Positions 4,136 through 62,653 of a DNA stretch of 64,000 nucleotides are shown here, piece by piece. A program made the translations under genes and the position numbers. Location: assembly GCA_043803745.1 (NCBI GenBank), contig JAZDJS010000026.1, forward strand, positions 5,025 to 69,024. The letters are read 5' to 3'. The stretch's first letter is position 1. Each line of letters opens with the position of its first letter. The DNA comes from an archaeon (lineage in GTDB: Archaea > SpSt-1190 > DYHY01). The notes below the pieces were generated by a model, which did not search any database, was not told the origin of the DNA, and was given only the letters and a program-made list of their open reading frames with translations.

Positions 4136-4141
4136 CTGGAA

Positions 4142-5179: not shown

Positions 5180-5181
5180 TT

Positions 5182-8319: not shown

Positions 8320-8691
8320 TCAAAGGTAGCTTTTTCCCGGGTCGGTTTCCCGCTTCGTGATTTCCCTCTGGTAGTCTGGGGGATAAATCTCGACTATCTC
8401 GAACTTTCCCCTCGTATGGGGCGTCCCGTCCTTCTGGTAGATTGTCTGCTCCAAAACCCGCGCATGCCCCCAGTAAAGCCATTTCCCTCCGATGTTCTCG
8501 ACGAGGAAAACCCACAAAGGGGGAACCTTGTACACGCGCGCGAGCGGCTTGTCCCTGAAATCGAAAACGCGCCCCCGGAATTCCTCAGCGGCAAGGGGAC
8601 TTTTCAGATGCGTTTCAAGCGAAAGTTCCGGCGGGAAACCCTGCTCCTTCGTCAGCTGAAGTGTGTCGTTAATCTCAATCAAGCTGCCCAT
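8320..8691 (-). CDS. small conserved hypothetical protein
   Basis: A compact ~124-aa ORF starting at MGSLIEIN with a globular composition. The longer track ORF extends over the divergent topoisomerase start. No family recognised. Confidence 0.35.
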   Translation of the reverse strand: MGSLIEINDTLQLTKEQGFPPELSLETHLKSPLAAEEFRGRVFDFRDKPLARVYKVPPLWVFLVENIGGKWLYWGHARVLEQTIYQKDGTPHTRGKFEIVEIYPPDYQREITKRETDPGKSYL

Positions 8692-8731
8692 TTCACCCCA
8701 AATTAGCGGGGAACGTTTTTTAAACACTTGG

Positions 8732-31566: not shown

Positions 31567-31773
31567 TTGGCCAAAAAAGGGCCAATGCGGGCCAGCTTCG
31601 ACTACGAAGACGTAAAAATGCGCTCGGTTGACGAAATCCTCTTCAACTACAACCGGGACAAGCCGACTTCCCGCAGAATTTCGAAATCGGAGCTGCTCAG
31701 ACGGCTCCTGGACCTTGTGTCGAACGGAAAAATACCTCTGGAGAAGGTGGTCATAATTAATGAGAAGAGATAA
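31567..31773 (+). CDS. small hypothetical protein (possible regulator) preceding the giant surface-protein genes
   Basis: A 62-68-aa basic ORF (likely start at MRASF, 31585) overlapping the start of the giant gene by 14 nt. No family recognised. Confidence 0.3.
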   Translation: MAKKGPMRASFDYEDVKMRSVDEILFNYNRDKPTSRRISKSELLRRLLDLVSNGKIPLEKVVIINEKR

Positions 31774-45004: not shown

Positions 45005-46714
45005 ATGGAAAAGAGGGAAATGGGGATTAAGATTGCCGCGGCAGGGATTCTTGCAATTCTCCTGCTTGTTGCGCTCCCCCTCGTCCTCGCGGACACGCCC
45101 TTCCCGGGATATTTCGAGGTGATTCCCTCCTGCCTTTCGACTCTCACCTGCGGTCAGGGACCGAACATAACAGTCAATGGAACGGGGATAGTCAACCTCC
45201 TTGCCGCTCCAGCCAACGGCGCTGCCGACGGGCTTGTCACCGGAGTTCCAGTCAACGTGACCTGGGAAACCACGACGGACGGCTCAAGCCCTTACCCGAT
45301 GAATTCCTCAGTCTGGAGAGCCAACTCATCAGGACATTTCCTTCTCGGGAGCAACGCAACTGTTTCTGCAAGCCACAGGGTGCAGATAGGGCCCTTCGAA
45401 TATTCCGAGGCATACTGCCCCTCGGCAGGCTGCGAGATTCGCCTCGTCGTTTCCAGCTGCAACGCAACGAGCGGAATGTGCATAAACTCCTCGGCTGACA
45501 ACTCAACATTCTCAATTGTCGTAGCGCCGTCCCTCTACAATTTCTCCTACCTGCCGGCAAGCCCGAAGACAGGGGATCTCGTAACGCTCAGCTGGAACAC
45601 ATATTCGGCAATGAACCATTCGGCGACCTGGACCGGCGGTTCCGCGGCAAACGCAAGCTATCTGACGGGGCATTCCGTCCAGGCAGGCTATTTCAACTAT
45701 TCCGAAAATCCGGTCTTCTCAATCAGGTCCTGCTCCTCGGGAAGCCAGTGCGAGCTGAAGAACCAGCAGGTCAACATAAGCCTAAGCACTGCCGGACTTG
45801 CCCTCTCGTCAACTTCGCCGAGCACGGCAATCACCGCAAGCTGGACAACCCACAACTCATCGAACGGCACACTCTTCTTCTCGGTTAACGGAGGCGCAGT
45901 GCAGAACTCAACCGACGGCAGCTTTTCAACGGGCCATTCGGCAGCTTTGGGAAGCTTCGCAGCAGGGGATTCCATAACCTACTATGCCCGGAGCTGCCTC
46001 CTTCCGAACAACTGCGAGACAACCGCGAACGCGACAGCGACAATCTCGGCAACTTTGACGACAACAATCCCGCCAGCAACTACGACAGTTTCCACCGGCG
46101 GAGGGGGAAGCGGCGGATTCTTCGGGGGGACGGTCACGACAATACCCGCAGTTGCAATTCCCGCGGGCTCAGAATACGCCTATAGGGCCCTCCCTGCCGG
46201 GCTTCCGGCAAGCTTCGCAGTCAACGGCACGTCCCAGGCAATAATCCTCGTCACTTTCACGCACAGCCAATATGTTCCCAACGCGACAATCGTTCTTCAG
46301 CGGGTGCTTTCATTCTCCGGAACACGCCCCCCGGGAGCCGTTTACCAGTATGTCAACCTCACCCACTATTACGTCGACGAGTCGAAATTGGTTCTCCCCG
46401 TCAAGATAGAATTCAGAGTGTCCAAGCAATGGGTCGCTGACAGCAACATTGACCGCGCGACAATTTCCCTCTACCGGCTGTCCGGAGGAAGCTGGCAGGC
46501 TCTCGAAACGGTCCATTCGGGGGAAGACGCCCAATACTACTACTTCAAGTCGAATTCTCCGGGGCTTTCCCTTTTCGCAATAACCGGGCTTTCAAGGACC
46601 GCTTTCTGGGATCTCATAAACCTAATCGAGGTCTATTACGCGGGAGACCCCTCGGTGGACTTTTGGAAGGTCCTTGATGCCCTGACCGCATATTACTCTT
46701 CGGGAGGAAACTGA
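45005..46714 (+). CDS. secreted S/T-rich protein with C-terminal PGF-pre-PGF-like domain (no PGF-CTERM)
   Basis: A signal peptide (AAAGILAILLLVALPLVLA) and sequon-rich repeats. The C-terminal block VKIEFRVSKQWVADSNIDRATISLYRLSGGSWQALETVHSGEDAQYYYFKSNSPGLSLFAITG matches the PGF-pre-PGF domain pattern, but it is followed by a hydrophilic tail rather than a PGF-CTERM anchor. Confidence 0.55.
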   Translation: MEKREMGIKIAAAGILAILLLVALPLVLADTPFPGYFEVIPSCLSTLTCGQGPNITVNGTGIVNLLAAPANGAADGLVTGVPVNVTWETTTDGSSPYPMNSSVWRANSSGHFLLGSNATVSASHRVQIGPFEYSEAYCPSAGCEIRLVVSSCNATSGMCINSSADNSTFSIVVAPSLYNFSYLPASPKTGDLVTLSWNTYSAMNHSATWTGGSAANASYLTGHSVQAGYFNYSENPVFSIRSCSSGSQCELKNQQVNISLSTAGLALSSTSPSTAITASWTTHNSSNGTLFFSVNGGAVQNSTDGSFSTGHSAALGSFAAGDSITYYARSCLLPNNCETTANATATISATLTTTIPPATTTVSTGGGGSGGFFGGTVTTIPAVAIPAGSEYAYRALPAGLPASFAVNGTSQAIILVTFTHSQYVPNATIVLQRVLSFSGTRPPGAVYQYVNLTHYYVDESKLVLPVKIEFRVSKQWVADSNIDRATISLYRLSGGSWQALETVHSGEDAQYYYFKSNSPGLSLFAITGLSRTAFWDLINLIEVYYAGDPSVDFWKVLDALTAYYSSGGN

Positions 46715-46715
46715 A

Positions 46716-47753
46716 ATGAAGATGAGAAAACGACATGCAAGCTACCAGCATCTTGCCGCGGCAATCATTTTCCTTCTTGCGCTGGTGGTCGGTGTCGCAT
46801 CCGCAGCAACGAGCGTTTCCTTCGAATTCACAGGTCCCGATGGGATCCTTCCCGGAAAAACCGGCGCCTACCGCGCGACAATCTCGCCAAACGAGGCAGT
46901 TTCGGGATTCGACTTGGCGGTCCTTGTGCCTTCCGGATGGAGCATAGATTCCTGGTCCGCTTCCGGATATTCCCGCAGCGCAATAACGCTCGACACGCGA
47001 AGCAGGTCCTACAGGGGGTTGCCTTATACGGCATACCACTGGAAATTCGCGAACGCCCTTTCCGCCGGGGAGAACATTTCATTCTCGTTGAACGTCAAAG
47101 TTCCGGAAACCGAAGCTATTGGGACCCGGAAGGAAATCTCCGCAATCTGGACCAACCCGAGCGGATTCGGCACAGAGAACAGGAACGTCAGCATCGCAAG
47201 CGCCTCAATTCTGTGCGGCGACGGCGCCTGCTCGTCAGGGGAAACTTGTTCAACCTGCCCGAAGGACTGCGGAGTCTGCTGGACGCCAGTATGCGGCGAC
47301 GGCGCCTGCTCCCCCGGAGAAGTCTCCTGCCAGGCCGACTGCGGGAATGGAAACACTCCGGTTAACACACCGACGACGGCAGGAAACTCAGGAAGCATCT
47401 TCGGAACCTTCGAAGGCAGCAGGAATTATCTGCTCTACGGAGGCTTGATTGTCCTTGTGCTTGCCCTGATAATGGTCGCGATATATGTTGTCAGGAAGGT
47501 TTCCGGGAGGCCGCGGGCGTTGGAACCGAGCCAGCCAATCCCCCTCGAGGAATACAATCGCGCCCAGGAGGCGGGCTCGCCCCTGCGCGACCAGGTTTCC
47601 GGGCGCTTTGACGTAAGACCGGTGAACCGGCAGCTTGAGAGGGCAACCGTCACGCCAAGGGAAATCGACACGACCGAGAAGAAAATCGTCCTTCTGAAAA
47701 AGGCAATGATGCGGATAAACAAGGTAATGGACGACCTTGGGAAAAACCTTTGA
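46716..47753 (+). CDS. type I membrane protein with Ig-like ectodomain and duplicated Cys-rich CGDGACS motifs
   Basis: A signal peptide, a beta-rich domain, two copies of CGDGACS.GE..C..DCG, a single TM (LLYGGLIVLVLALIMVAIYVV) and a cytoplasmic tail. The start is 2 nt after the previous gene. Confidence 0.5.
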   Translation: MKMRKRHASYQHLAAAIIFLLALVVGVASAATSVSFEFTGPDGILPGKTGAYRATISPNEAVSGFDLAVLVPSGWSIDSWSASGYSRSAITLDTRSRSYRGLPYTAYHWKFANALSAGENISFSLNVKVPETEAIGTRKEISAIWTNPSGFGTENRNVSIASASILCGDGACSSGETCSTCPKDCGVCWTPVCGDGACSPGEVSCQADCGNGNTPVNTPTTAGNSGSIFGTFEGSRNYLLYGGLIVLVLALIMVAIYVVRKVSGRPRALEPSQPIPLEEYNRAQEAGSPLRDQVSGRFDVRPVNRQLERATVTPREIDTTEKKIVLLKKAMMRINKVMDDLGKNL

Positions 47754-50384: not shown

Positions 50385-52160
50385 ATGACCAAAAGAATTG
50401 CAATAGTCAGGCTGGAAAAGTGCAAGGCGCCGAAGGACTGTCCGTATCTCTGCATACGGGCGTGCCCCCCCGTGCGCGCAGGAAAGCAGACGATAATCGA
50501 AAACAAGGAGACGGGGAAGATAATAATCGAGGAGGAAACCTGCATCGGCTGCGGACTGTGCGTCAAAAAATGCCCTTTCGACGCAATAACCATAATCAAT
50601 CTCCCGGAAGCCCTTGCCGAACCAATCCATCGTTTCGGGAAAAACAGCTTCGCACTTTACGGGCGGACGCTCCCCTTCCCCGAAAAAGGGGCCGTGACCG
50701 GCTTCCTCGGGCCGAACGGCTGCGGCAAGACAACCGTGGTCTCAATACTTTCCGGCTCGCTAATCCCCAACCTCAACTCCCAGGAGGAAGGGCGCCTTCC
50801 CGCGGTAATTGAGCACTTCGCAGGGCAGGAGATACAGAAGCATTTCAAGGTTCTTGAGAAGGGCTCCCTTCGAGCGGCTGTGAAGCCGCAGCAAATTTCC
50901 GTGAGCGGAAGGATTGGCGAGACGCTCGTTTCCGAGGCAGCGGCGAAGGTTCCGGAGGAGACCCTCAGGGAGTTCAACATCAGGCCCCTTTTTGGGAGGA
51001 AGATTTCAGAGCTTTCCGGCGGCGAGCTCCAGAGGCTGACAATCGCCCTTGCATATGGGAAGGATGCGGACCTTTATTTCTTCGATGAGCCCTCCTCATT
51101 CCTCGACATCCGGGAGAGGATACGGACGGCAAAGCGGCTTCGCAATCTGGCAGGGACCGGCAAATCGGTCTTCCTTGTCGAGCACGACCTCACCCTCCTC
51201 GACACCGCGTCCGACAACGTGATCCTTTTCTACGGGGAGCCTTCCGTTTACGGGGTTGTCTCAATTCCGAAGACCCAGCGCGTCGGGATAAACACGTATC
51301 TTTCCGGATTTTCCCGGGACGAGAACATAAGATTCCGCCCCGGGGAGATAAAATTCTCGGAAAGGGCTCCGGTCGAGAAGATGTCGCGAAAGGAAGCAGT
51401 CCAGGAGTTCTCGAAAATAGAGAAGAAGCTCGGCGAGTTCTCCCTATTCGTCGAGGGGGGGAAGATACGCAAGGGCGAAGTTGTCGGAGTTGTCGGGGAG
51501 AACGGGACCGGAAAGACGACCTTCGTGAGAATCCTTGCCGGGGAAATGAAGCCCGACAGGGGCGACGTGAAAAAACAGCTCATGAAGCTTTCCTACAAGC
51601 CTCAGCAGCTTGAAGTCGCGGACAGGGAGCTTGCGGTGCGGCAGTATCTGGCGGTCCCGATTGCCGAGGCAAGCGACCTTAATTTCGAGAGCGAGGTTGC
51701 CGAGCCGCTCAGCCTGAGGCTCCTGATGCAGAAGAAGTTGGGCGAGCTTTCCGGCGGCGAGCTCCAGCGGGTTGTTATCGCTGCCGCAATGATGAAGAAG
51801 GCGGACCTGTACCTCCTTGACGAGCCCTCGGCTTTCCTTGACGTCGAGCAAAGGCTCGAGGTTGCAAAGTTCATCAAGCGCGTGAACGAGAAACGGGGGG
51901 CGGGCGTCCTCGTCGTCGACCACGACGTGCTGTTCATAGATTACCTTGCCGACAGCCTCGTCGTCTTCTCCGGAACCCCCGCGGTTTCAGCGAAGGCGGT
52001 CGGACCCCTGACAATGCGGGAAGGGATGAACCTTTTCCTTTCCGATCTCGGAGTGACTTTCAGGAGGGATCCCGACACCAAGAGGCCGCGCGCCAACAAG
52101 GAAGACAGCCGGCTTGACCGGGAGCAGAAGGGCACCGGGGAATATTACTTTTCGGGATAA
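50385..52160 (+). CDS. abcE1: ABCE1 / RNase L inhibitor-type ribosome recycling ATPase
   Basis: An N-terminal diferredoxin Fe-S domain (CKAPKDCPYLCIRACPP...CIGCGLCVKKCPF) and two ABC cassettes (Walker A GPNGCGKTT and GENGTGKTT, with signature motifs). Confidence 0.9.
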   Translation: MTKRIAIVRLEKCKAPKDCPYLCIRACPPVRAGKQTIIENKETGKIIIEEETCIGCGLCVKKCPFDAITIINLPEALAEPIHRFGKNSFALYGRTLPFPEKGAVTGFLGPNGCGKTTVVSILSGSLIPNLNSQEEGRLPAVIEHFAGQEIQKHFKVLEKGSLRAAVKPQQISVSGRIGETLVSEAAAKVPEETLREFNIRPLFGRKISELSGGELQRLTIALAYGKDADLYFFDEPSSFLDIRERIRTAKRLRNLAGTGKSVFLVEHDLTLLDTASDNVILFYGEPSVYGVVSIPKTQRVGINTYLSGFSRDENIRFRPGEIKFSERAPVEKMSRKEAVQEFSKIEKKLGEFSLFVEGGKIRKGEVVGVVGENGTGKTTFVRILAGEMKPDRGDVKKQLMKLSYKPQQLEVADRELAVRQYLAVPIAEASDLNFESEVAEPLSLRLLMQKKLGELSGGELQRVVIAAAMMKKADLYLLDEPSAFLDVEQRLEVAKFIKRVNEKRGAGVLVVDHDVLFIDYLADSLVVFSGTPAVSAKAVGPLTMREGMNLFLSDLGVTFRRDPDTKRPRANKEDSRLDREQKGTGEYYFSG

Positions 52161-53458
52161 ACTTCCCTATTGGTGAGCGCCCTGAAGCCAATTACAAGCG
52201 CGTGCAAAAGCTTGCCAGGGGCGAAAATCTTCCCCGCCAGGGTCATCGGGTTGAGATAATAATTCACAAGCAGCCGTCTTTTGAAACTCCAAAGCCGGGC
52301 TCCACCCCCTTTGTTCAATGTTATGCTTTTTCCAAGGAAGACGCGCTTCGCTTCTGAGCGCCCCTCTTCCGGATATTGCACGAAATTGGAAATCTGGACA
52401 ACGTCGGGCGTTATCCTGAAGACGAGCTCGTATGTTTTTTGGAGGTCGCTTTCGGTTTCCCCCGGACAGCCCACAATGAAATATGCCTGCGTCCGTATGC
52501 CCGCCTTTTTCGCCCTGGCGAAAGTGGACTCTATTCCCCTGACGGAAGTTCTTTTGTTCAGCCTGTCAAGGAGCTCCTGGCTTCCGGATTCAACTCCGAA
52601 GGCAATCAGTTTGCACCCGGCGGCCTTCATGAGGCGCAGTTCTGCCAAGCCAACCGAATCAACCCGTTCCTTGCAAAACCATTCTATCCTCCCTCCGAGC
52701 CCCCGTGAAATTATCTCCTTGCAGAAACTTCGGAGCCATTCCTTTCGGAAGCCGAATATGTCGTCCAGGAAAGCGAAGCGACGTATCCTTTTTTGCTTGA
52801 GCAGGTTTTCCATCAGATTCACGACCTGCTCCGGAGGATAGGCCCTCCAAACACTTCCAGACACGGAAGGGACAACGCAGAAAGAACACTTGTAAGGACA
52901 GCCCGCGCTTGCTCCAACAATTGCGCAGGGCCCTATTATGAACTCCTTGATGATTCCGTAATGGATTGGACCGCCCAATTTCCTTGAAAAACAAACCCGC
53001 CTACGCCCGCCGCTCGGCAAAATGCAGTTCTTCCCAATCAGCTTCCAGTTGCGTTCGAAGCACATTCTCACAAGAGTTTCTTCGGCAAACCCCGCGACAA
53101 CCGCGCTTGCTCCTGAGGATTTCAGCGCAGCATGAGGAGTCAAGGTTGCATGCGGGCCCCCGAGGATGCAAAGAAAACCCCGGCGCCTCAGCCCGGAGCA
53201 AAGACGGCAAATCTCTGGAAAAGACTCGCTGTACGTGTAAAGGCCCACGAAGGCGGGATTCAGGGCGGAAACAAACTCCAGGAAAGCCGTGTCCGAGGGG
53301 AAATCTCCCGCACGAACCAGTTTGGCTTCAACTCCCGCCGCGCCCAGGGCGGAGGACAGTTTCAGCAGCCCGAGCGGGACATCCACCAGGCTTTTTCTGG
53401 ATGCGCCCGGAGCAACAAGAAGAATTTTGGATGCCCAGGGCGCGGTGGCTGCGTTCAT
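52145..53458 (-). CDS. B12-binding (class B) radical SAM protein
   Basis: An N-terminal cobalamin-binding Rossmann domain and a CxxxCxxC motif (SAGCPYKCSFCVVP). Confidence 0.8.
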   Translation of the reverse strand: MNAATAPWASKILLVAPGASRKSLVDVPLGLLKLSSALGAAGVEAKLVRAGDFPSDTAFLEFVSALNPAFVGLYTYSESFPEICRLCSGLRRRGFLCILGGPHATLTPHAALKSSGASAVVAGFAEETLVRMCFERNWKLIGKNCILPSGGRRRVCFSRKLGGPIHYGIIKEFIIGPCAIVGASAGCPYKCSFCVVPSVSGSVWRAYPPEQVVNLMENLLKQKRIRRFAFLDDIFGFRKEWLRSFCKEIISRGLGGRIEWFCKERVDSVGLAELRLMKAAGCKLIAFGVESGSQELLDRLNKRTSVRGIESTFARAKKAGIRTQAYFIVGCPGETESDLQKTYELVFRITPDVVQISNFVQYPEEGRSEAKRVFLGKSITLNKGGGARLWSFKRRLLVNYYLNPMTLAGKIFAPGKLLHALVIGFRALTNREVYPEK

Positions 53459-53522: not shown

Positions 53523-55472
53523 CTAAGCCAGAAGGAGGGGGAGAAAGCCCGCAACCGAAGCCGCCAGCAAAAACGTGGAGGACCACAGCCGATTTTCGGC
53601 GGAAGCATAGCTGAACGAAAGTTCAAATTCCTCCCCCGGAGCAACTTCAAAGTATACTCCGCATCCGCGCGCACCCGGCCGCGCCGAGTTACCAGCCTTT
53701 CCGTTGATTGAAAGCGAGATTTGCGGGTCGTAAACGAGAGGAAAGAAGCCCTTTGTCGAGTTGCACTTGCCAAGAATCGAACCCCCGCTCTTCCGGTATG
53801 AGCACCCGACTTCCGAGGCGAGGCTTCTGAGATTCCTGTCGAAAACGGATATGTCGGAAAATTCGGCGACTTTTTCACCGCTTTGGGGAGCGCCCCCGGG
53901 ATTTCCGAAACTGAATTCCCTGGCTATTTCCAGCGCATCCTTCTCGTCCTCGACAGCCTCTTCCACTTGGAGCCGGCCCACCGGATAAAGAACCCCATAG
54001 TACTCTCCGGCGGGCCTCACCTGAAGAAGCTTCAGGAAGAAACCCCCGGACCTTTGGGAGTTGTCGACGATGACAGACGTCTTTTTCGGGAAGGGCGGGG
54101 CGTTCTCAACGGACCAGGCAAGAAGCTCCGAGTCGGAATCTTCCATCCTCCCGGACAATACGGCCGCGTTCGGAAACTTCCCGTGTTCCTTTTCAAAGTC
54201 GTAATGCAGGGCCTTGCCGAAGGAATCCGGCCCCCCCGAGAGGGCGCCAACGAAGAAAAAGAACTGAACTGCGAAGAGCAGGGTTGCCACAATGGTCGCC
54301 GGAAGAAAGGCCGATTTTTCCCCGTCTTGCGAGGGGATAAGCTCGCCCACCAAGAGAGCCGCGCCAACCCAAATGACCGGCACCAGATAGTAGCCCAGAA
54401 AAGCCTCCAGATAGACGCTTCCGGAAAAATTCAAAAGCGCCCCCAAAAGGAGAACAACCCCAAAGGACGCGTATCTTTCGACAGTTTCCGATTTCCGTTT
54501 GGAAAAAACTAGCGAGACTGCGCCCAGAAGGCCCCCGAAAAGGAGGATTGGCGCAATCGAGCTCTGATAAAGGAAATTCGGAACGAATGTTTTGGAATTT
54601 TCAGGCCTTGCAAGGCTGAGGTCCTGGAAGAAGTGCGAAAACACCTCGGCGATGGGAAGACTGAGGAGCCCGCTGTAGAAAACCAGAAACGCACCGAACG
54701 CCATTATGGGAAGCGCGACCAGGGCGGCAAGCGACGCGAGCCCCCCCGTCCCAGACCTCCTGCGGAAGACGCGCGAAACCAGCTCTCGCAGAAAAACGAC
54801 GGCGGCAACGGAGACGAACGTCCCGTTGTGAAAAAGGTAGGCGCTTCCGCCCAGAAGGAAAGAGGCAACCGGCCCGATGCGCTTTCCCATCAGCAGGGGC
54901 ATTGAAACTGCCAACGCGAGGTAAACCGAATAGTTCCCTATTATGAACTGCTGGTGCGGCTGCAGGACCGCCCACGCGACTGCCGCAGCAAACCCGCTCG
55001 CGCGTTTGTCTCTTGTTGAAAGTACGATCGAAACCGGAACCGAGGCGAAAGCGAGAAAAAGCGCAAGCCTCCACGAAAACTCCCCGCTTGCGGGAATGAA
55101 AAGCGAGACAACCCCGGAAATGAACGTCAGGATGAATTTGTTTATGTGGACCGGCGATATCAGGCGAAAGTTCGAATAAGCGTCATCCGAAAGAAAAAGC
55201 TTTCTTGCCCCGTCGAAAAACGCGTACTGGAGCGGAGAGTCCCCGACCAGAGGGATCCCTCCGGAAAACCCCCCCATCGAAAGGAACTGGACGAATGCAA
55301 TGCAGATTATGGAGACGAGCCTTGCCTTCGGGTGGCGCAGCCCAAGAAGAAAAAGCAGGGCGAATGCAGCAGTTTTTCCCAGGGCGGTTGCGGGCGAGAG
55401 CGAAGGCATTGCGAGAACGCTGAAAACCAGCAAAACAAGCAGAAACGGGAACCTTGTTGATTGGCCGGACAT
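53523..55472 (-). CDS. large polytopic membrane protein with periplasmic-type C-terminal domain (function unknown)
   Basis: About 12 TM helices, then a ~200-aa soluble domain and a terminal hydrophobic segment. The architecture is the same as ORF 5182-7374, which also sits next to a B12-rSAM gene. Confidence 0.5.
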   Translation of the reverse strand: MSGQSTRFPFLLVLLVFSVLAMPSLSPATALGKTAAFALLFLLGLRHPKARLVSIICIAFVQFLSMGGFSGGIPLVGDSPLQYAFFDGARKLFLSDDAYSNFRLISPVHINKFILTFISGVVSLFIPASGEFSWRLALFLAFASVPVSIVLSTRDKRASGFAAAVAWAVLQPHQQFIIGNYSVYLALAVSMPLLMGKRIGPVASFLLGGSAYLFHNGTFVSVAAVVFLRELVSRVFRRRSGTGGLASLAALVALPIMAFGAFLVFYSGLLSLPIAEVFSHFFQDLSLARPENSKTFVPNFLYQSSIAPILLFGGLLGAVSLVFSKRKSETVERYASFGVVLLLGALLNFSGSVYLEAFLGYYLVPVIWVGAALLVGELIPSQDGEKSAFLPATIVATLLFAVQFFFFVGALSGGPDSFGKALHYDFEKEHGKFPNAAVLSGRMEDSDSELLAWSVENAPPFPKKTSVIVDNSQRSGGFFLKLLQVRPAGEYYGVLYPVGRLQVEEAVEDEKDALEIAREFSFGNPGGAPQSGEKVAEFSDISVFDRNLRSLASEVGCSYRKSGGSILGKCNSTKGFFPLVYDPQISLSINGKAGNSARPGARGCGVYFEVAPGEEFELSFSYASAENRLWSSTFLLAASVAGFLPLLLA

Positions 55473-55511: not shown

Positions 55512-56909
55512 CTAGGTGGGATATGTGTGGCCGAGAAGCTCCCTTCCTTCCGGGGTCTTCGAATATTCGTAAACGTCAACCTGCCTTGAATAGTCGACGT
55601 TGTGCTGGGTCGAGATGTCGGCTATGTGGAGCTGGAGCATGTCGCGCCGGTCAAGAGACTTGTATATGCCCGCTATCCTGTCGAACCCGCTTCCAAGAAG
55701 GGAAACAAGAACCTTGCGATTCTCATTCTCAAACAAAATCGGAAACGCGCTGATAAGGGCCGTCATCCCATTCCGCCCCTTGAGAAACCCTTCGAGCCCC
55801 TTGCTGACGGAGTTGAGGAAGCTTTCCGTGAAGAGCGGGGTGTAGAACCCCTTTTCATCCACTTTCAACAGTATGGAATATCCCCGCCCCCATGCGAATT
55901 TCCGGGCAGCGTCCCTTCCAAAGAGCCGTTCTATGCAGTCAAGGGCGAGCCGTCGGGTCCTTAGGAGGCTTTCGAAATCTGAGGATTTCACCCGTCCCTC
56001 CGTCTGCGCCTCAAGGAGCTTTATTATGTCGGACGAAGTGAGAAGCCAGTCGTGCTTTATTTTCAGTTTCCCGTACGGCTTCATCGGGTGGAACATCACC
56101 CTCGCCGCCCCGTTCTTCGCGGCAAAGTCGAGTATTCCCGAAACCTCCCCGTCATTCACGCCCTTGGCGATTGTGGCAACGAGGCAAGTGGGGATCCCTT
56201 CAGCCCGGAGGTTTTCAAAGGCGGAAAGCTTGGCTTTCAAAAGATTCTTCCCCTTCATTTTCACGTATGCTGAACCATTCAGGGAATCGAAAGAAAGGTT
56301 GACCAGGCTTATGCGCGCCGCCTTCATTTTCTTCACGAACGGCCTGCTCGCAAGCCTTTTTCCGTTCGTATAAAGGACAACGAAATTCCCGCTCTCCCTG
56401 AAAGTTTCGACAATTTCAAGGAAATCCTTGTGGATTGTGGGCTCTCCCCCGACAAGGAGGATCTCCTTTCCCCTGAGGGACGCCCTTTCTATCACGGACT
56501 TGATTTCCGCGACGGTCAGCTGTTTTTTCCGGGTGATGGAACTTTCGCACATGAAATCCCTTGCAATGCAGACCGAACAGTTCGCGTTGCAGCGCGGCGT
56601 CACGAAGAAGCCTATCGCATGGGAGCTGACCTTGCCGAGGTCTTCCACCCTTGCCTGAGCCGGGTCGGACTCGGGCGGGAACGAATCGATCGTCCTCCTG
56701 AAGAAATCCGCATCGTTCTCAACGAGGCACCGTTCATGGACCCCGCAAGGAACGCAGTCTTTTTCAAGAAAAATCCGTCCGTTTTCCTCGGAAATTTCGC
56801 CGCTAACTTTCCCAAAGCACTTTGAACAGAGACTTTCCGTCCTGTAGAGGGGGACTGCGCCCCGCAATTGAGTTTCCTGCAGTTGGACTTGCGTGGATGA
56901 ACTCGCCAT
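55512..56909 (-). CDS. radical SAM protein with N-terminal 2xCxxC zinc-ribbon/rubredoxin-like knuckle and C-terminal domain of unknown function
   Basis: CSKC...CVPC precede a canonical CNANCSVC radical SAM motif. Only four more Cys follow, so a full twin-cluster SPASM domain is unlikely. Start placed at MASSS, with TATAATAAAG ~25 nt upstream on the minus strand. Confidence 0.7.
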   Translation of the reverse strand: MASSSTQVQLQETQLRGAVPLYRTESLCSKCFGKVSGEISEENGRIFLEKDCVPCGVHERCLVENDADFFRRTIDSFPPESDPAQARVEDLGKVSSHAIGFFVTPRCNANCSVCIARDFMCESSITRKKQLTVAEIKSVIERASLRGKEILLVGGEPTIHKDFLEIVETFRESGNFVVLYTNGKRLASRPFVKKMKAARISLVNLSFDSLNGSAYVKMKGKNLLKAKLSAFENLRAEGIPTCLVATIAKGVNDGEVSGILDFAAKNGAARVMFHPMKPYGKLKIKHDWLLTSSDIIKLLEAQTEGRVKSSDFESLLRTRRLALDCIERLFGRDAARKFAWGRGYSILLKVDEKGFYTPLFTESFLNSVSKGLEGFLKGRNGMTALISAFPILFENENRKVLVSLLGSGFDRIAGIYKSLDRRDMLQLHIADISTQHNVDYSRQVDVYEYSKTPEGRELLGHTYPT

Positions 56910-56919
56910 GCTTCCGGGG

Positions 56920-57030
56920 GGCAATCTCTCTTTATTATAGTTATTGGTGCCCGGAACGCCCGTCCGCTCTTTTTGCGAAACGCGGAGGCGCCCGGCCCGT
57001 TGAACAGGTTTTATATATTCGGCCGGAACT
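56920..57030. promoter_or_regulatory. divergent promoter region with two A/T boxes (TATAATAAAG for minus gene; TTTTATATATT for plus gene)
   Basis: A 130-bp spacer between divergently transcribed radical SAM genes. Each A/T box lies ~20-30 nt from its ATG. Confidence 0.35.
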
Positions 57031-57039
57031 GCTGCGGGA

Positions 57040-58416
57040 ATGGCGCTCATGAGGCCGGGCCCGGAGTTTCCGATAAAGCGCGTTCTCCTAGTGCTCCCCC
57101 CTTGCCCGGAAGAGATACTGGCCGGGCGCAAGGGAGTTTCCTACAGCAAAGAAAATCCGCTGGGGCTCCTCGAGCTTTCGCGAAGCCTTCGGGCCGCGGG
57201 AATTTCCGCGAAAGTCCTTGATTTGGGGAACAACGATTTTTCCCCGGGGACCTTTGAGCGGGAGATACTCAGCTTCAAGCCGGGCATCGTCGGATTTTCG
57301 GCCACGATAATCACCTTAACGGAAGTTGCCAAAATGGTCGGCTCCGCCAAGCGGCTCGGCTGCCTGACCGTCGTCGGCGGGCGCATAACCTCGATGCTTT
57401 CGGGCAGGGAGCTCTCCCGTCTTGGCGCGGATGCGGTGGTTTTCGGGGCGGGCGCAGACCCCCTTTTGGAAATGTGCAAGTCGAGAAACTGGTCCGCAAT
57501 CCCCCGTGTTCTCGCTCATGGGCGCGGCGCCTCGAAGGCGAAACGACCGAGCCTGCAGAAAAGCCGGAAACTCAAGCTCACCGGACGCCCGCCATCCTCG
57601 ATCTCACCGGCCAACAAATCGTTCGCGTTCATAATAGCGAGCTTCGGGTGCCCCTACTCGTGCAACTTCTGCTCGGAGTTCGTCGAAACCGACCGGGTCT
57701 GGCAGGCCTATGAGCCGGAAAGCGTCGTCAAGGAACTGGCGCGGCTTGCGGACAAAGGGGTCAAGGGAGCTTTTTTCTATGACAGCATATTCGGATTTGA
57801 AAGGAAGTGGCTTTGCGAGTTCTGCAACCGGATGATTGAAACCGGGATTGGGAAGCGCATCTGGTGGCAATGCTTCAGGAGGGTTGACGAGGTTGACGAA
57901 GAAATCCTTTCCCTGATGAAGCGCGCGGGATGCAACATGATTTTTTTCGGGGTCGAATCCGGAAGCGACCGCGTTCTGAAGCTAATGAACAAGGGAATAA
58001 CCACGAGGCAAACGCGCGAAGCATTCTCGGCAACGAGGAGGGCCGGAATATTCGCGTATGCCGCAATAATGCTGGGATATCCCGGGGAAACCCGGCGCGA
58101 CCTGGAGCTGACGAAAAAGCTCCTCATCGAAATCGAGCCGGATTTTTTCCACATGAGCTATTTCATACCGCTTCCTAGGACAAAGGCGGCGAAAAAGGGG
58201 CGCGTGCGGGGGGGCTGCGCGGACTTTTACGGCGAATCCCCGAGAAAATACCAAGGCATCCTCGACTTTGACCAGCTCGCGGCCGCGAAAAAGGAAATTC
58301 ACAGGGCGTTCTACCTGAGGCCCTCGCGGCTTTTCAAGATTCTCCTGCAGTCGAAGGGGAGCCCGCGGACGCTCTCAATTCTTTTGAGCCCGCTTGTCAC
58401 CTCATTCAGGAAATAG
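57040..58416 (+). CDS. B12-binding (class B) radical SAM protein
   Basis: An N-terminal cobalamin-binding domain and a CxxxCxxC motif (FGCPYSCNFCSEF). Confidence 0.8.
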   Translation: MALMRPGPEFPIKRVLLVLPPCPEEILAGRKGVSYSKENPLGLLELSRSLRAAGISAKVLDLGNNDFSPGTFEREILSFKPGIVGFSATIITLTEVAKMVGSAKRLGCLTVVGGRITSMLSGRELSRLGADAVVFGAGADPLLEMCKSRNWSAIPRVLAHGRGASKAKRPSLQKSRKLKLTGRPPSSISPANKSFAFIIASFGCPYSCNFCSEFVETDRVWQAYEPESVVKELARLADKGVKGAFFYDSIFGFERKWLCEFCNRMIETGIGKRIWWQCFRRVDEVDEEILSLMKRAGCNMIFFGVESGSDRVLKLMNKGITTRQTREAFSATRRAGIFAYAAIMLGYPGETRRDLELTKKLLIEIEPDFFHMSYFIPLPRTKAAKKGRVRGGCADFYGESPRKYQGILDFDQLAAAKKEIHRAFYLRPSRLFKILLQSKGSPRTLSILLSPLVTSFRK

Positions 58417-58494: not shown

Positions 58495-59337
58495 ATGAAG
58501 CCGGGGAAACTGATTCTTGCAGCGATGCTAATCTCGTTGACCGTTCTTTCCGGGTGCAGCATGAGCCTCGGCGACAACGTCCAGTTCGGGCAATTCGGGA
58601 AGGAGGTCCTGGCCGAAACGGCCCGGACGTATGAAGGGGATTTTCTCCCCCTTCAGGAGGAATATCGCGCCGAGATGCTCCTCTCGGCAGCGAACGGGAC
58701 GTTCGCCTATTCGGAAACCCGGCGCTCCCTCTCGCGCGCCAACGCATGGAGCAACCTGCATCGGCTGATCTCGCCCCTTTATTCGTGCTTCGACATCTCG
58801 TTCGATTCCCCGCCGCAGAGATTCATTTGCCCTGACGAGTTCAAGAGCTTCAGCGACTTTAGGGAGGACATTTATTCGGTTGCGCTCTCAAGGAACTCGG
58901 TCGCTTCCCGCGTCCCCTCCCTTTTCGCAATACACTATCCGTTCCCGGTTCTGACGGTCAACGGACAGGGCATGAAACTTGAGAACTTCAGCGCCTCGAG
59001 CAAGCCGTCCTATTCGGAAATAATGAGAATGGCCGAGAAGCCCATGCGGCTCACGTCGGTAAACTCAACCGAGGAACGCGCCGGATTTTCGGCAGGCTTC
59101 GAAACGGGAGACACGCTCTGCGTCGATTTCGGTTTCCTTCCGAAGAGGTCGCAGGAAATTTCCGTTGCATCCGACCTTCCCTTCCTGAACTACACCTTCT
59201 ATGGACGGCTCCCGGAAAGCAACATGCGCGTCGAGCGGACTCAGCAGGGGAGACTGGTTTTCAAATATGACGCGTTCGACCCGGAATACATGAACCTCAC
59301 CCTTGCAAAGGTCTGCTTCGGACGAACCGGAGGGTGA
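58495..59337 (+). CDS. putative secreted lipoprotein
   Basis: A signal peptide with a lipobox-like LSGC, followed by a hydrophilic domain. No family recognised. Confidence 0.4.
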   Translation: MKPGKLILAAMLISLTVLSGCSMSLGDNVQFGQFGKEVLAETARTYEGDFLPLQEEYRAEMLLSAANGTFAYSETRRSLSRANAWSNLHRLISPLYSCFDISFDSPPQRFICPDEFKSFSDFREDIYSVALSRNSVASRVPSLFAIHYPFPVLTVNGQGMKLENFSASSKPSYSEIMRMAEKPMRLTSVNSTEERAGFSAGFETGDTLCVDFGFLPKRSQEISVASDLPFLNYTFYGRLPESNMRVERTQQGRLVFKYDAFDPEYMNLTLAKVCFGRTGG

Positions 59338-59347
59338 CTGCGCCGAA

Positions 59348-60781
59348 GTGAAGCCGCGAGTTCTCCTTGTCAATCCCCCCGCCATCCAGGGGAACTTCGT
59401 CCGCGAAGGGCGCTGCATGAACCGGCAATCCGCATGGGGGTCGATTTGGCCGCCGCTGACCCTGATGTACATCTCGGCCGTGCTGAGGAAGGCAGGCTAC
59501 CGGACAATGATAGCGGATTCAAACGTCGGGAGCCCGGAGAGCTTTTGGAGAAGAATAGGGGAATTCCGCCCGGAACTCTCAATAATCAGCACTTCAACGC
59601 CGACAATAGACTCGGACGTCGGGTTTGCCGGAACGCTCAAGAGGAAATTTTCCTCAAAAACGGCGCTTGTCGGAACCCACCCGACCGCAACCTGGCGGGA
59701 ATTGCTTTGCAGGCCCTCGGTCGATTTCGTTGTCAGGGGGGAGCCCGAGCAGACGTGCCTCGAGCTTGCCAGTTTCCTCGGCAAGCGCGGGAAGGGGTCC
59801 CCCGGAAAAATCCGCGGTCTTGCATGGAAGGCCGGCAGGCACGGAAGACCCGTCTCAAACCTGGCGAGGAAATTTCTTTCCAACCTTGACAGGCTCCCCT
59901 TCCCAGACAGGGATTCAATTGACAACACAGCATACAGGATGCCCCTGTCCGGAAGGAGCTTCTCGCTACTCAGCACCTCCCGCGGATGCCCGTATTGCTG
60001 CACGTTCTGCGTTGCCTCGATATTTTACGGGAAAAGCTTCCGCAAACGGTCCGCAGGGTCAATTGCCGACGAAATTGAGATTTGCAAGAGGAAATACGGA
60101 ATCGAAAACTTCCTTTTCTGGGCCGACGAATTCACGTTCGACAGGCGGCAGGTGAGGGAAATCTGCAGGGAAATAAAATCCCGGAAGCTGAAAATCTCCT
60201 GGTTCGCGAACAGCCGGGTCGATTCCGGCGACTATGCCCTTTTCCGCGAGATGAGGGAATCCGGATGCTTCCTCGTCTCCTTCGGAATAGAGTCGGCAAG
60301 CCAGAAAATACTTGACAACGCGAGGAAGGGGGCGACAGTCGAGCGGGCGCTCTCCGCCGTCAGGGATGCCAAGAGGGCGGGCCTCGAAGTGATAGGCCAT
60401 TTCATTTTCGGCCTCCCGGGAGAAACGAAGGAGACTCTCCGGGCAACGACCGACCTTGCGAAAAGAAGCGGGGTTGACTATGCCCAATTTTACGCCGCAA
60501 CGCCATATCCCGGGACGGTTTTCTACGAGCGGTGCCGGAAAGGCAACCTGATAGCCGCCGATGCGGACTTTTCCGAAATGGAAATAAGCAGGGCGGCGAT
60601 ACGGCAGGGCGAGCTTTCAGCTGACGAGCTTTCCGAAGCAAGGCGGCGCGCATACGCGGAGTTCTACTTGCGCCCGTCCTACTTCATCCCCAGGATTCTT
60701 TCAGTCCTTTTCAGAAACGGTCCGAAGGGGCTTTTGGATTCCTTCGACTACCTCTCCGACTGGGGGGGACTTGCGAAGTGA
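59348..60781 (+). CDS. B12-binding (class B) radical SAM protein
   Basis: A cobalamin-binding N-domain and a CxxxCxxC motif (SRGCPYCCTFCVAS). Likely GTG start at 59348 after GGAGGGTGA. The stop overlaps the next gene's GTG start (GTGA). Confidence 0.8.
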   Translation: MKPRVLLVNPPAIQGNFVREGRCMNRQSAWGSIWPPLTLMYISAVLRKAGYRTMIADSNVGSPESFWRRIGEFRPELSIISTSTPTIDSDVGFAGTLKRKFSSKTALVGTHPTATWRELLCRPSVDFVVRGEPEQTCLELASFLGKRGKGSPGKIRGLAWKAGRHGRPVSNLARKFLSNLDRLPFPDRDSIDNTAYRMPLSGRSFSLLSTSRGCPYCCTFCVASIFYGKSFRKRSAGSIADEIEICKRKYGIENFLFWADEFTFDRRQVREICREIKSRKLKISWFANSRVDSGDYALFREMRESGCFLVSFGIESASQKILDNARKGATVERALSAVRDAKRAGLEVIGHFIFGLPGETKETLRATTDLAKRSGVDYAQFYAATPYPGTVFYERCRKGNLIAADADFSEMEISRAAIRQGELSADELSEARRRAYAEFYLRPSYFIPRILSVLFRNGPKGLLDSFDYLSDWGGLAK

Positions 60782-61593
60782 GCCTTTATTCAAGCGCGAA
60801 ACCCCTGTCGGATTTCTACAGGCTGAAGGAGCACCTGCCGATTCTTGCTCTGGCTTTCGCGCCATTCGCAGCCGCGGGCTTCCCGGATTGGCGCTTGTTC
60901 GCCCTCGACCTCGCGGCAACCTTCCTCGCCCTTTCCTCCATATATTCGGTCAACAATTTCTTCGACTCGATCTCCGGGGAGCGGAATCCCGCCGGTTCCG
61001 TCAGGCGGCTGAGCGGGAAAGCCCCCGCATTCTTCCTCTCGATCCTTCCCGGGATTGCCTCGGTCTTCCTGGGGAGCCTCCTTCCCGGGAAATGCTTTTT
61101 CCTCCTCCTCGCAATCCTCCTGATTTTCCTCGCCTATTCGGCGGACTTCCCGAGGGCGCGGAACATCCCCGGGCCCGACTTTCTCCTGAACGTTCTCGGG
61201 TTCTACCTTGTTTTCGCCAAATCCTATTTCCTCTATTTCAAGGAGACGGGGGCCTTTTTCATTGCGTTTTCGGTTTTCATAGTTTCCTTCTATTCGGTTT
61301 CCGAAGCGGTACACCAGCTCGCCCATGAAAGGGAGGATTCCCGGCTCGGGAGAAAAACCCTTTTCGGAATTCTCGGGCGCGGCGGCGCAATAGCGCTCTC
61401 GGCAGCCCTCCTTGCGCTTCCGATAATCTTCTGGAGGGGACTTCCGTCCGCCGCATCCCTCGCATTTTCAGCCCTGAGGCTCTTCTCAGTTGCTTCAACT
61501 TCAGGGGATTTCCGGGCCCTCCGGAAAGAACTCTACGGCCGGGAAGAGCTTGCCGTCCAGCTCGCGCTTTTCGCTTTCCTCGTTCCCGCCTGA
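60778..61593 (+). CDS. polytopic membrane protein resembling UbiA-superfamily prenyltransferases with degenerate Asp motifs
   Basis: Eight to nine TM helices. The first loop reads NNFFDSISGERN (compare N(D)xxDxxxD). The second motif HEREDSRLGRKTLFGILG closely parallels UbiA DRDDDVKIGIKSTAILFG. Confidence 0.4.
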   Translation: MSLYSSAKPLSDFYRLKEHLPILALAFAPFAAAGFPDWRLFALDLAATFLALSSIYSVNNFFDSISGERNPAGSVRRLSGKAPAFFLSILPGIASVFLGSLLPGKCFFLLLAILLIFLAYSADFPRARNIPGPDFLLNVLGFYLVFAKSYFLYFKETGAFFIAFSVFIVSFYSVSEAVHQLAHEREDSRLGRKTLFGILGRGGAIALSAALLALPIIFWRGLPSAASLAFSALRLFSVASTSGDFRALRKELYGREELAVQLALFAFLVPA

Positions 61594-61621
61594 AAGCCAT
61601 TATAAACTTCCGGGCGCGCCA

Positions 61622-62653
61622 ATGCGGGTGAGCGGATTTTCCAGGAGCGCCAGATTCCTGAAAGGGCTCGCGCTTTCAAGGCTTGGAAGGTCGGTCCCCC
61701 TTTTCGTCGGGCACACGATAAACTTCAAGTGCAACCTTTCATGCGCCTATTGCGGGACGTGGAGGGACGCGCGCACCAGGGAGCTTCCGACCGGAAAAGT
61801 ACTGGAGATGATTGACGCCTTTTCGAGGGCGGGGACGGTCTCATGGAACCTTTCCGGGGGCGAACCCCTCCTCCGGGAAGATATCGGGGAGATAATCGGT
61901 TTCGCAAGGGAGAAGGGGCTCGCGGTTTCGGTCAACACCAACGGAATACTCGTTCCGGAAAAGCTGGAAAGCCTCGGGCGCGCCGACCTTCTGAGCGTTT
62001 CAATTGACAGCGGCGAGCGGGAAAACGACCTGGTCCGCGGAAAAGGTTCGTTCAGGAAAGCGGTCAAGGGAATTCTCGCGGCGAAAAAGGCGGGGATAAA
62101 AACATCGATAATGGCAGTCCTTTCCCCGGCAACGCTCTCATCCGGCTGCAAGGGGGTTGCGCGGGCAATCGCCCTTTCCAGGAAGCTCGGGGTCCAGATC
62201 GCCTTCCAGCCAATGCACGGGGATTCCTACAACCGAATTGGCGGGGGAATCGGCTACACTCAGGCGGTTTTCCGGAATCCGAACTATCAGAACGCGATTT
62301 CCCTGATTGAATCCGAGAAAAGAAGGAATCCCCGGAGGATACGGATGTCCTGGGGCTATCTTCGGAAGCTCAGGAGCCTGAAGCCCCACAACTGCTTCGC
62401 AGGAAGGAACTTTTGCATAATATTCCCGGACGGGAGAATCGCCCCTTGTTTCGTCAGGGGCCCGGCAGCCTCCCCGAGGGCATCCCCGAGGGCAACCCCG
62501 AGGGCAACCCCGAGGGCAACCCCGGAAAACTTCGCAAGGCTTGCCAGAACCTCCTCCTGTTTCTGCCATTTCAACTGCTATTCGGAATGGAACGCGCTCC
62601 TCTCGCTTGAGCCGGAAAGCATCCTCCACTACGCTTCAAACTATTTCGGCTGA
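61622..62653 (+). CDS. radical SAM/SPASM-domain protein
   Basis: A CNLSCAYC radical SAM motif plus seven downstream Cys (SGCK, HNC, NFC, APC, CFCHFNC) consistent with a SPASM/twitch domain. Start placed at MRVSGF after the previous stop. Confidence 0.75.
   Translation: MRVSGFSRSARFLKGLALSRLGRSVPLFVGHTINFKCNLSCAYCGTWRDARTRELPTGKVLEMIDAFSRAGTVSWNLSGGEPLLREDIGEIIGFAREKGLAVSVNTNGILVPEKLESLGRADLLSVSIDSGERENDLVRGKGSFRKAVKGILAAKKAGIKTSIMAVLSPATLSSGCKGVARAIALSRKLGVQIAFQPMHGDSYNRIGGGIGYTQAVFRNPNYQNAISLIESEKRRNPRRIRMSWGYLRKLRSLKPHNCFAGRNFCIIFPDGRIAPCFVRGPAASPRASPRATPRATPRATPENFARLARTSSCFCHFNCYSEWNALLSLEPESILHYASNYFG
62472..62519. repeat. 12-nt tandem repeat (CCCCGAGGGCAA)x4, in-frame PRAS-PRAT-PRAT-PRAT inside the SPASM domain
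   Basis: Directly visible in the sequence. It is inserted between the 4th and 5th auxiliary-cluster cysteines. Confidence 0.85.

Follow-up and report, generated by a model that had tools for sequence, protein, structure and literature searches.

What might an archaeal enzyme do that is folded like a tetraether synthase and lacks the cysteines for the auxiliary metal clusters of that synthase? This question is raised by a gene on the minus strand of a 64,000-nucleotide stretch of archaeal DNA (contig JAZDJS010000026.1; referred to below as the window), which codes for a radical S-adenosylmethionine (SAM) protein of 465 amino acids. We found that this protein is a structural relative, along its full length, of Tes, the glycerol dibiphytanyl glycerol tetraether (GDGT)/macrocyclic archaeol synthase (GDGT-MAS), that it groups with many proteins sharing its lack of ligands for the two auxiliary [4Fe-4S] clusters of Tes, and that the genes of these proteins are nearly always found close to a gene for a dedicated UbiA-family prenyltransferase. 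With middling confidence, we take it to tailor an isoprenoid lipid by one-radical chemistry and not to be a tetraether synthase.

A radical SAM protein with the architecture of Tes

The open reading frame (ORF) runs from an ATG at 56909 to a TAG at 55512-55514, and its product is identical in sequence to the deposited protein MFH0961752.1 (P0001; "MAG: radical SAM protein [archaeon]", MAG standing for metagenome-assembled genome), which is encoded on a contig of 71 kb. A longer frame, starting from a TTG at 57131, was considered and set aside, as it would add 74 residues that overlap the divergent neighbouring gene and are not in the deposited protein. The translation contains 11 cysteines, at positions 28, 31, 52, 55, 61, 107, 111, 114, 121, 242 and 325, which lie in the contexts CSKC (28/31), CVPC (52/55), HERC (61), CNANCSVC (107/111/114), FMC (121), PTC (242) and LDC (325). 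All of these are exactly as listed in an earlier note on this DNA, but the spacer between CSKC and CVPC, given there as 17 residues, is 20 by direct reading. Residues 22-62 matched the Pfam family PF23545 (Zn_ribbon_HMPTM) with 36.4 bits against a gathering threshold of 27 (E 3.7e-9), and residues 103-263 matched PF04055 (Radical_SAM) with 85.5 bits against 29.5; since both matches exceed their thresholds, the motifs are not a product of chance. The SPASM/twitch family PF13186 had no match in the protein at E<=0.01.

Among solved structures, the best relative by sequence was GDGT-MAS (7TOL; E 2.7e-35 over residues 17-379), followed by MoaA at 1e-9. We then turned to an AlphaFold2 model built from an alignment of 34 relatives (predicted local distance difference test, pLDDT, 84.8; predicted template modelling score, pTM, 0.87), in which the ribbon domain forms four beta-strands at a pLDDT of about 90. 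A Foldseek comparison of this model with 7TOL and 7TOM gave template modelling (TM) scores of 0.73-0.74 over 481-487 aligned columns (E about 1e-28), whereas other radical SAM structures (MoaA, SkfB and viperin) matched the core only, with a TM score of about 0.36. Because the fold match to GDGT-MAS is full-length while the others stop at the core, the whole protein, its C-terminal domain included, appears to be Tes-like, and this last domain is homologous to the C-terminal domain of Tes that holds the [4Fe-4S]C cluster and the lipid pocket. Of the four domains of the Tes fold, the model matches all but the N-terminal cluster domain. The likeness extends to the rubredoxin-like site, which in GDGT-MAS reads C9-X2-C12-X20-C33-X2-H36 and has the same spacing as the predicted site of our protein, C28-X2-C31-X20-C52-X2-C55, the fourth ligand being a histidine in the former and a cysteine in the latter. 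The Tes-like architecture and rubredoxin-like N-terminus suggested in the earlier note were thus recovered, and no characterised non-lipid radical SAM family aligned along the full length of the protein. Yet the curated family cut-offs were missed by a wide margin: the Tes model NF045702 scored 132.9 bits against an equivalog cut-off of 450 (model positions 2-309 of 486), and the TrsS model NF045646 scored 151 bits against 490 (positions 2-305 of 441). Five further clade members scored 125-164 bits with the Tes model, and none of them reached any curated NCBIfam cut-off.

The auxiliary cluster ligands are missing

GDGT-MAS carries four metal sites, namely a rubredoxin-like iron, an N-terminal [4Fe-4S] cluster, the SAM cluster and a C-terminal [4Fe-4S] cluster bound by three cysteines and the labile Met439, and both the Tes papers and a 2026 review present this four-metallocofactor architecture as characteristic of Tes. 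Starting from saturated diether lipids, the enzyme forms the biphytanyl chains of GDGT or of macrocyclic archaeol at a cost of two SAM per bond; a sulfur of the C-terminal cluster forms a C-S bond, which stores the first substrate radical while the second SAM is cleaved.

To compare the ligand columns, 34 close subfamily members, including the protein under study, were aligned with 29 Tes-like or TrsS-like proteins. The three cysteine columns of the CPxDCGxC segment, which binds the N-terminal cluster ([4Fe-4S]N; C73, C77 and C80 plus a histidine in GDGT-MAS), were cysteine in 100% of the 29 Tes-like or TrsS-like proteins and in 0% of the 34 subfamily members, all of which have gaps or other residues there. 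The three C-terminal columns that serve the [4Fe-4S]C cluster were cysteine in at least 90% of the 29 and again in 0% of the 34, our protein having G341, V446 and H461 at these positions. The methionine of the FMD motif, the remaining ligand of this cluster, is also replaced (IADIS), though the surrounding hairpin and the D..R motif still align. After residue 300 the protein holds a single cysteine, which is not conserved, and it does not qualify as a member of the SPASM/twitch group.

The four cysteines outside the ribbon and SAM-cluster motifs (61, 121, 242 and 325) are not conserved, even among the nearest relatives. As no ligand position has been kept either, we expect from these alignments a metal complement of one SAM cluster and one mononuclear site, with zero auxiliary clusters and not one. 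The earlier note had counted too few cysteines for two auxiliary clusters, which now holds for all six cysteine positions as well as the methionine, and its proposal, that such a protein may form a separate, uncharacterised subfamily that has a ribbon and no more than one auxiliary cluster, is supported and can be sharpened to an expected zero.

These losses bear directly on the possibility that the protein is, after all, a genuine tetraether or macrocyclic archaeol synthase, which would work by a cluster-independent route and need no radical storage. The identical spacing of the rubredoxin-like site would agree with this, as would the predicted GDGT-MAS fold, which is full-length and includes the lipid-pocket domain, and the reports of Tes homologues in MAGs of DPANN archaea, where they were called unexpected and possibly host-derived. 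However, it is precisely the cluster that forms the C-S intermediate whose ligands are all missing, the Tes cut-off is failed by this protein and by the five other clade members, and the conserved partners described below, among them a UbiA that is novel, include glycosyltransferases and proteins like sulfatases, with no known archaeal lipid-biosynthesis family in the neighbourhood annotations. A synthase of this kind is therefore, in our judgement, decidedly improbable.

A cluster-less clade with intact catalytic motifs

A word-indexed homology search returned only one near-full-length relative and hardly more when it was repeated with a profile, while an exhaustive profile search recovered 517 representatives at E<1e-30, dozens of them full-length at about 440-480 amino acids. 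Grouping 161 of the retrieved proteins by the unweighted pair group method with arithmetic mean (UPGMA) on identity distances yielded three groups: one with both auxiliary-cluster signatures (33 proteins), one without the N-terminal motif and with 1-3 C-terminal ligand positions (49 proteins, 42 of them with 2-3), and one, including our protein, without the N-terminal motif and with 0-1 C-terminal ligand positions (79 proteins). Since 79 of the 161 representatives share the lack of ligands, cluster absence appears to be a property of a clade, and the protein studied here shows every feature by which we define it: a length of about 440-480 amino acids, a ribbon, a radical SAM core, a Tes-type C-terminal domain, no auxiliary ligands and a dedicated UbiA gene nearby. 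Its closest relative is P0033 (locus L012), at 38% identity. In species-representative genomes, full-length relatives turned up in an Aenigmatarchaeota MAG and a Woesearchaeota MAG (JAGVVV01, JAIPIC01); the taxon-labelled members of the clade are DPANN archaea, and other loci lie on low-GC (30-38%) archaeal contigs with archaeal ribosomal proteins or eEF1A. In the literature we found no description of the cluster-less clade or of its UbiA partnership.

The SAM-cluster motif CX3CX2C is invariant in 34/34 subfamily members and in 29/29 Tes-like relatives, and of the GGEPT motif G154 is invariant in the 34 members and the remaining positions are at least 90% conserved. As to the ribbon site, the earlier note had made its proposal depend on the conservation of the two CxxC pairs among homologues. 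Conservation of the metal site was found in the close relatives, with C28 and C31 at least 90% conserved in the 34 closest members, and the refuting outcome named in the note did not arise; the second pair is usually a vicinal CC and only sometimes CxxC (as in our protein), CxxH or HC.

In the wider cluster-less group, about half of the proteins fail a simple regular expression for the ribbon site and some have only 3-5 cysteines in total. Such an apparently progressive loss of metal sites could be taken to mean that the protein is a decayed, inactive remnant of Tes or a non-enzymatic lipid-binding protein. Retained catalysis is argued, however, by the SAM-cluster motif and GGEPT having been kept among members at 24-38% identity, and the maintenance of gene length and UbiA synteny across distant low-GC and high-GC lineages likewise seems to indicate selection for catalysis. 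We find the idea of a remnant hardly credible.

A dedicated UbiA partner

The most pronounced signal shared by the loci is a UbiA-family prenyltransferase of 257-287 amino acids, also encoded in the window, and an alignment of eight orthologues showed it to belong to a dedicated subfamily with the motifs FYR.K, S.N(D).FD (S.ND..D) and E..HQ..H...D. By a hidden Markov model (HMM) of this subfamily, 10 of the 11 distinct cluster-less loci, namely the window, L001/2, L003, L012-14 and L015-L020, have a copy no more than 10 kb from the homologue; the sole negative locus, L004, offers only about 670 bp of downstream sequence. By the same model, 0/21 loci of cluster-bearing relatives had a copy. The UbiA gene lies directly downstream of the homologue in L003 and L020; elsewhere its coordinates are 5562-6425 in L002, 11413-12228 in L003 and 1824-2651 in L012, and it is also present in L015-L018. 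This tight coupling suggests that DPANN-type archaea have an envelope pathway, based on isoprenoids, that has yet to be described.

The E..HQ..H...D motif, which stands near the end of the UbiA protein, is unusual; canonical UbiA enzymes carry their second Asp-rich motif at about this position. The subfamily gave no sequence match to solved UbiA structures and matched generic prenyltransferase models weakly.

Proposed function

We propose that the enzyme is soluble or peripheral and has descended from the Tes/GDGT-MAS lineage, keeping the mononuclear Cys4 site at its N-terminus (with Fe or Zn), the [4Fe-4S] cluster that cleaves SAM and the fold of the C-terminal domain, which in Tes lines the lipid pockets, and that both auxiliary [4Fe-4S] clusters were lost along the way. 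The UbiA partner would make or handle an isoprenoid lipid or lipid carrier whose hydrocarbon tail would be the substrate of the enzyme, as suggested by the Tes homology together with the UbiA partnership. Since there is no cluster sulfur on which to park a first substrate radical, we infer single-radical chemistry, that is, a one-SAM, one-radical transformation, for which closing a ring or forming a C-C bond onto a double bond, addition of 5'-deoxyadenosyl to an olefin, and isomerisation are candidate reactions; the two-SAM sp3-sp3 tail-to-tail coupling of Tes would not be performed. The product would feed an envelope lipid or glycolipid pathway, in which the neighbouring B12-radical-SAM enzymes, the methyltransferase and glycosyltransferase, the sulfatase-like proteins and the large membrane proteins would also take part.

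Several points weigh against this reading. The lipid substrate is argued from two things, Tes homology and UbiA partnership, and no member of the clade has been characterised. The grouping that delimits the clade is a UPGMA of identities and not a proper phylogeny, and, cluster absence having been read from sequence, non-cysteine ligands or an intersubunit cluster are conceivable. The neighbouring glycosyltransferase family 2 (GT2) and deacetylase genes are generic and not specifically HpnI- or HpnK-like, and no family could be detected for the large membrane neighbours, a single-sequence model of the 649-amino-acid one reaching a pLDDT of 42. Finally, several loci carry ATP-grasp ligases, SPASM enzymes and many B12-radical-SAM enzymes, a gene content that would fit a pathway for a peptide or another natural product too.

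This gene content is what speaks for non-lipid tailoring, in which the Tes fold would have been recruited to act on a ribosomal or ATP-grasp-built peptide or on a modified glycan, with UbiA merely prenylating or anchoring the product. In L004 and L017 the gene directly upstream of the homologue encodes an ATP-grasp ligase, L003 and L017 have SPASM and numerous B12-radical-SAM enzymes, such as are typical of peptide maturation, and L003 and L004 hold sugar-modifying genes (carbamoyltransferase, acetyltransferase, oxidoreductase and epimerase). Neither the window nor most of the loci, however, have an ATP-grasp gene, while UbiA is present almost everywhere; a gene for a precursor peptide was not recognised, though no systematic search for one was made; and the only characterised relative of the fold acts on lipid tails. 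We thus regard non-lipid tailoring as unlikely, though with a real chance of being right, and continue to favour a one-radical enzyme acting on an isoprenoid lipid.

A bolder form of the lipid reading concerns the biology of the hosts. The general view of DPANN-type archaea is that they are lipid auxotrophs and obtain their membranes from hosts. It is conceivable, if distinctly doubtful, that they possess a dedicated two-enzyme core, consisting of the novel UbiA and the cluster-free Tes paralogue, which builds or remodels an unusual isoprenoid lipid by radical chemistry new to the fold. This core might couple carbons by way of unsaturated chains, either tail-to-tail or to form a ring, requiring no radical storage, or it might perform an HpnH-like addition of 5'-deoxyadenosyl that would give the chain a polar group at its far end, and its product would then be decorated by B12-radical-SAM, methyltransferase and glycosyl-modifying enzymes.

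Tes is the only characterised enzyme of its fold, and its mechanism depends on a radical-holding auxiliary cluster. A sizeable clade without auxiliary clusters is therefore a natural test of what the Tes scaffold does in their absence, and a new lipid-tail reaction is probably hidden there. The clade also matters to palaeoclimate research and ecology, where Tes homologues serve as genomic markers of tetraether (GDGT) production: its members should not be counted as tetraether synthases in surveys that use this marker.

Gene neighbourhood and window context

The features of the gene and its surroundings are collected in Table 1. The TATA-like box TATAATAAA lies in the 130-bp divergent intergenic region and is a possible archaeal promoter.

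Table 1. Features of the cluster-less radical SAM gene and of its neighbours in the window
Feature	Position	Strand	Basis
Gene for cluster-less Tes/GDGT-MAS-like radical SAM protein, 465 amino acids	55512..56909	-	ORF and translation; Pfam domains
N-terminal zinc-ribbon/rubredoxin-like domain, residues 22-62	56724..56846	-	PF23545 Zn_ribbon_HMPTM; structure model
Predicted metal-site motif C28-X2-C31-X20-C52-X2-C55	56745..56828	-	Direct reading; GDGT-MAS spacing
Radical SAM core (partial TIM barrel), residues 103-263, GGEPT at 154-158	56121..56603	-	PF04055
CX3CX2C motif C107-N-A-N-C111-S-V-C114, for the SAM-cleaving [4Fe-4S] cluster	56568..56591	-	Conservation
C-terminal domain, residues about 290-465, without cluster ligands	55515..56042	-	Foldseek; column comparison
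TATA-like box TATAATAAA, about 30 nt 5' of the ATG	56931..56939	-	Upstream sequence read directly
Multi-pass membrane protein, 649 amino acids, adjoining downstream on the same strand	53523..55472	-	Hydropathy scan
Radical SAM protein with B12-binding domain, end of the same-strand run	52145..53458	-	Pfam; cross-locus matches
Radical SAM protein with B12-binding domain, divergent from the studied gene	57040..58416	+	Pfam; relatives in L001, L004, L012, L017, L018
Protein of 280 amino acids with lipoprotein-like signal peptide (LTVLSGC)	58495..59337	+	Translation; one N-terminal hydrophobic segment
Radical SAM protein with B12-binding domain, related to HpnJ, BchE and AprD4	59303..60781	+	Pfam
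UbiA-family prenyltransferase, 271 amino acids, dedicated subfamily	60778..61593	+	PF01040, 49.2 bits
Small radical SAM enzyme	61490..62653	+	PF04055, 87.2 bits; PTO1314, 91 bits, under its cut-off

Apart from UbiA, the genes that recur across loci encode BchE/HpnJ/AprD4-like radical SAM enzymes with a B12-binding domain, a small radical SAM enzyme, a UbiE-like methyltransferase and a GT2, along with a polysaccharide deacetylase, members of the sulfatase/alkaline-phosphatase family, PMT_2 (GT-C) proteins and family-less multi-pass membrane proteins of 520-710 amino acids. The homologues thus sit in gene clusters of an envelope type. The region around P0033 in L012 is syntenic with the window, sharing its housekeeping genes and its partner set, which there comprises a small radical SAM enzyme, UbiA, a B12-radical-SAM enzyme, a 266-amino-acid protein and a sulfatase-like one, with a large membrane protein beside the homologue.

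The 649-amino-acid membrane protein has about 11 hydrophobic segments in its first 415 residues, followed by a soluble domain of about 210 residues and a C-terminal anchor. It had no Pfam or NCBIfam match, and in a phmmer search none of the large membrane proteins from other loci matched it; it shares 25% identity over 548 residues with the product of the gene beside the closest relative in L012, and proteins of its size flank the homologue in L003 and L016. A second module of similar composition is found at 2732-7374, where a B12-binding radical SAM gene is followed by genes for a 345-amino-acid and a 730-amino-acid protein, the latter with the topology of the 649-amino-acid protein (about 10 hydrophobic segments, then a soluble domain and an anchor at the C-terminus) and no detected sequence similarity to it.

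The 280-amino-acid lipoprotein-like protein belongs to no known family and has an orthologue at the same position in L012; near UbiA in L015, L016 and L017 there are family-less proteins of comparable size (266-302 amino acids). The product of 59303..60781 scored 232 bits with the HpnJ model (cut-off 577.6) and 177 bits with that of BchE, matched the AprD4 structure 6FD2 (E 1.5e-29), and has orthologues in L001, L004, L012, L017 and L018. A cyclitol side-chain pathway of the HpnH/I/J/K kind, which the co-occurrence of GT2, a deacetylase and B12-radical-SAM enzymes had brought to mind, was not supported by family scoring, the GT2 being MftF/EpsD-like and the deacetylase PdaB-like in NCBIfam, and the B12 enzymes about equally related to BchE, HpnJ and AprD4.

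The small radical SAM gene, whose true start is probably near 61622 at MRVSGF, has orthologues in L012 (383 bits), L017 and L004. At 62461-62524 it contains a 12-bp tandem repeat (4.4 copies, 97% match) encoding (A-S/T-P-R)n, and as this low-complexity insert falls between the C-terminal cysteine segments CFAGRNFCIIFPDGRIAPC and CFCHFNC, it may lie within a twitch/SPASM-like motif.

Radical SAM genes are unusually dense in the window, with six in 64 kb (2732-4135, 52145-53458, 55512-56909, 57040-58416, 59303-60781 and 61490-62653), four of which encode B12-binding domains. Locus L017 (1-21383) holds ten in 21 kb, comprising three with SPASM domains, three with B12-binding domains and four others, including the homologue, in addition to UbiA.

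The window has a GC content of 56% and encodes ABCE1, an archaeal nicotinamide mononucleotide adenylyltransferase, Trm1, a TFIIB-like protein, FtsZ and a topoisomerase IB. In a collection of 5.8 billion sequences, its ABCE1 (50385-52160) shared 76% identity with the one from the L012 organism and no more than 56% with any from a named archaeon, and because identity nowhere exceeds 76% (self excluded), the window appears to come from a deep, poorly sampled archaeal lineage. The topoisomerase IB (8663-10387) is of the eukaryote type, known in few archaeal lineages, with strong matches to Topoisom_I_N, Topoisom_I and Topo_C_assoc. Two adjacent giant ORFs, at 31760-37672 (1970 amino acids) and 37672-44988 (2438 amino acids), have hydrophobic N-termini and hardly any recognisable domains, with only weak immunoglobulin-like matches near the end of the second, and probably encode surface proteins; two more family-less ORFs follow at 45005-47753. 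Rfam had no match in the window.

Comparison with known systems

Compared with Tes/GDGT-MAS (MJ0619; 7TOL, 7TOM; NF045702), the protein shares the order of ribbon, radical SAM core and C-terminal domain, as well as the CX3CX2C motif, the GGE motif and the D..R motif of the C-terminal hairpin. It differs in the missing ligands of both auxiliary clusters and in its gene neighbourhood, which is unlike that of Tes; among the proteins of the window, there is no second Tes homologue.

The likeness to MoaA and to SPASM/twitch enzymes such as PqqE, SkfB and anSME is that of the radical SAM core (E 1e-9 to 1e-6); a SPASM/twitch match and a C-terminal cysteine cluster motif are absent from our protein, and its N- and C-terminal domains are of the Tes type.

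Of the curated models, that of TrsS (NF045646), a bacterial radical SAM (seleno)protein, scored highest, the similarity covering the ribbon and the core over about 310 residues. P0142, which scores as a true TrsS at 503 bits, has the auxiliary-cluster motif CPYDCGLC and C-terminal cysteines, whereas our protein has neither, and TrsS identity was ruled out by score and by motif content. In the literature, TrsS is listed as an uncharacterised selenoprotein family with no function given.

Falling together with the cluster-less clade at the first split is the intermediate group of the UPGMA analysis, whose members have about 440-460 amino acids, mostly the same ribbon and no CPxDCGxC. They differ in that most keep 2-3 of the three C-terminal cysteine positions and could thus still hold a catalytic auxiliary cluster. 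The proteins of this class (P0081-P0175) likewise fall outside the curated Tes and TrsS cut-offs.

A functional parallel to the reading we favour, a one-radical enzyme for an isoprenoid lipid, is HpnH, the adenosyl-hopene transferase, which uses a single SAM to add a 5'-deoxyadenosyl radical to the terminal olefin at the end of an isoprenoid lipid. In sequence, our protein shows a generic core likeness to it (TIGR03470, 38.7 bits against a cut-off of 225), and the neighbourhood annotations contain no HpnG-like nucleosidase. As a functional analogy only, HpnH nonetheless illustrates that one-radical chemistry at the end of a lipid is of the kind that would be open to a Tes-like enzyme without auxiliary clusters.

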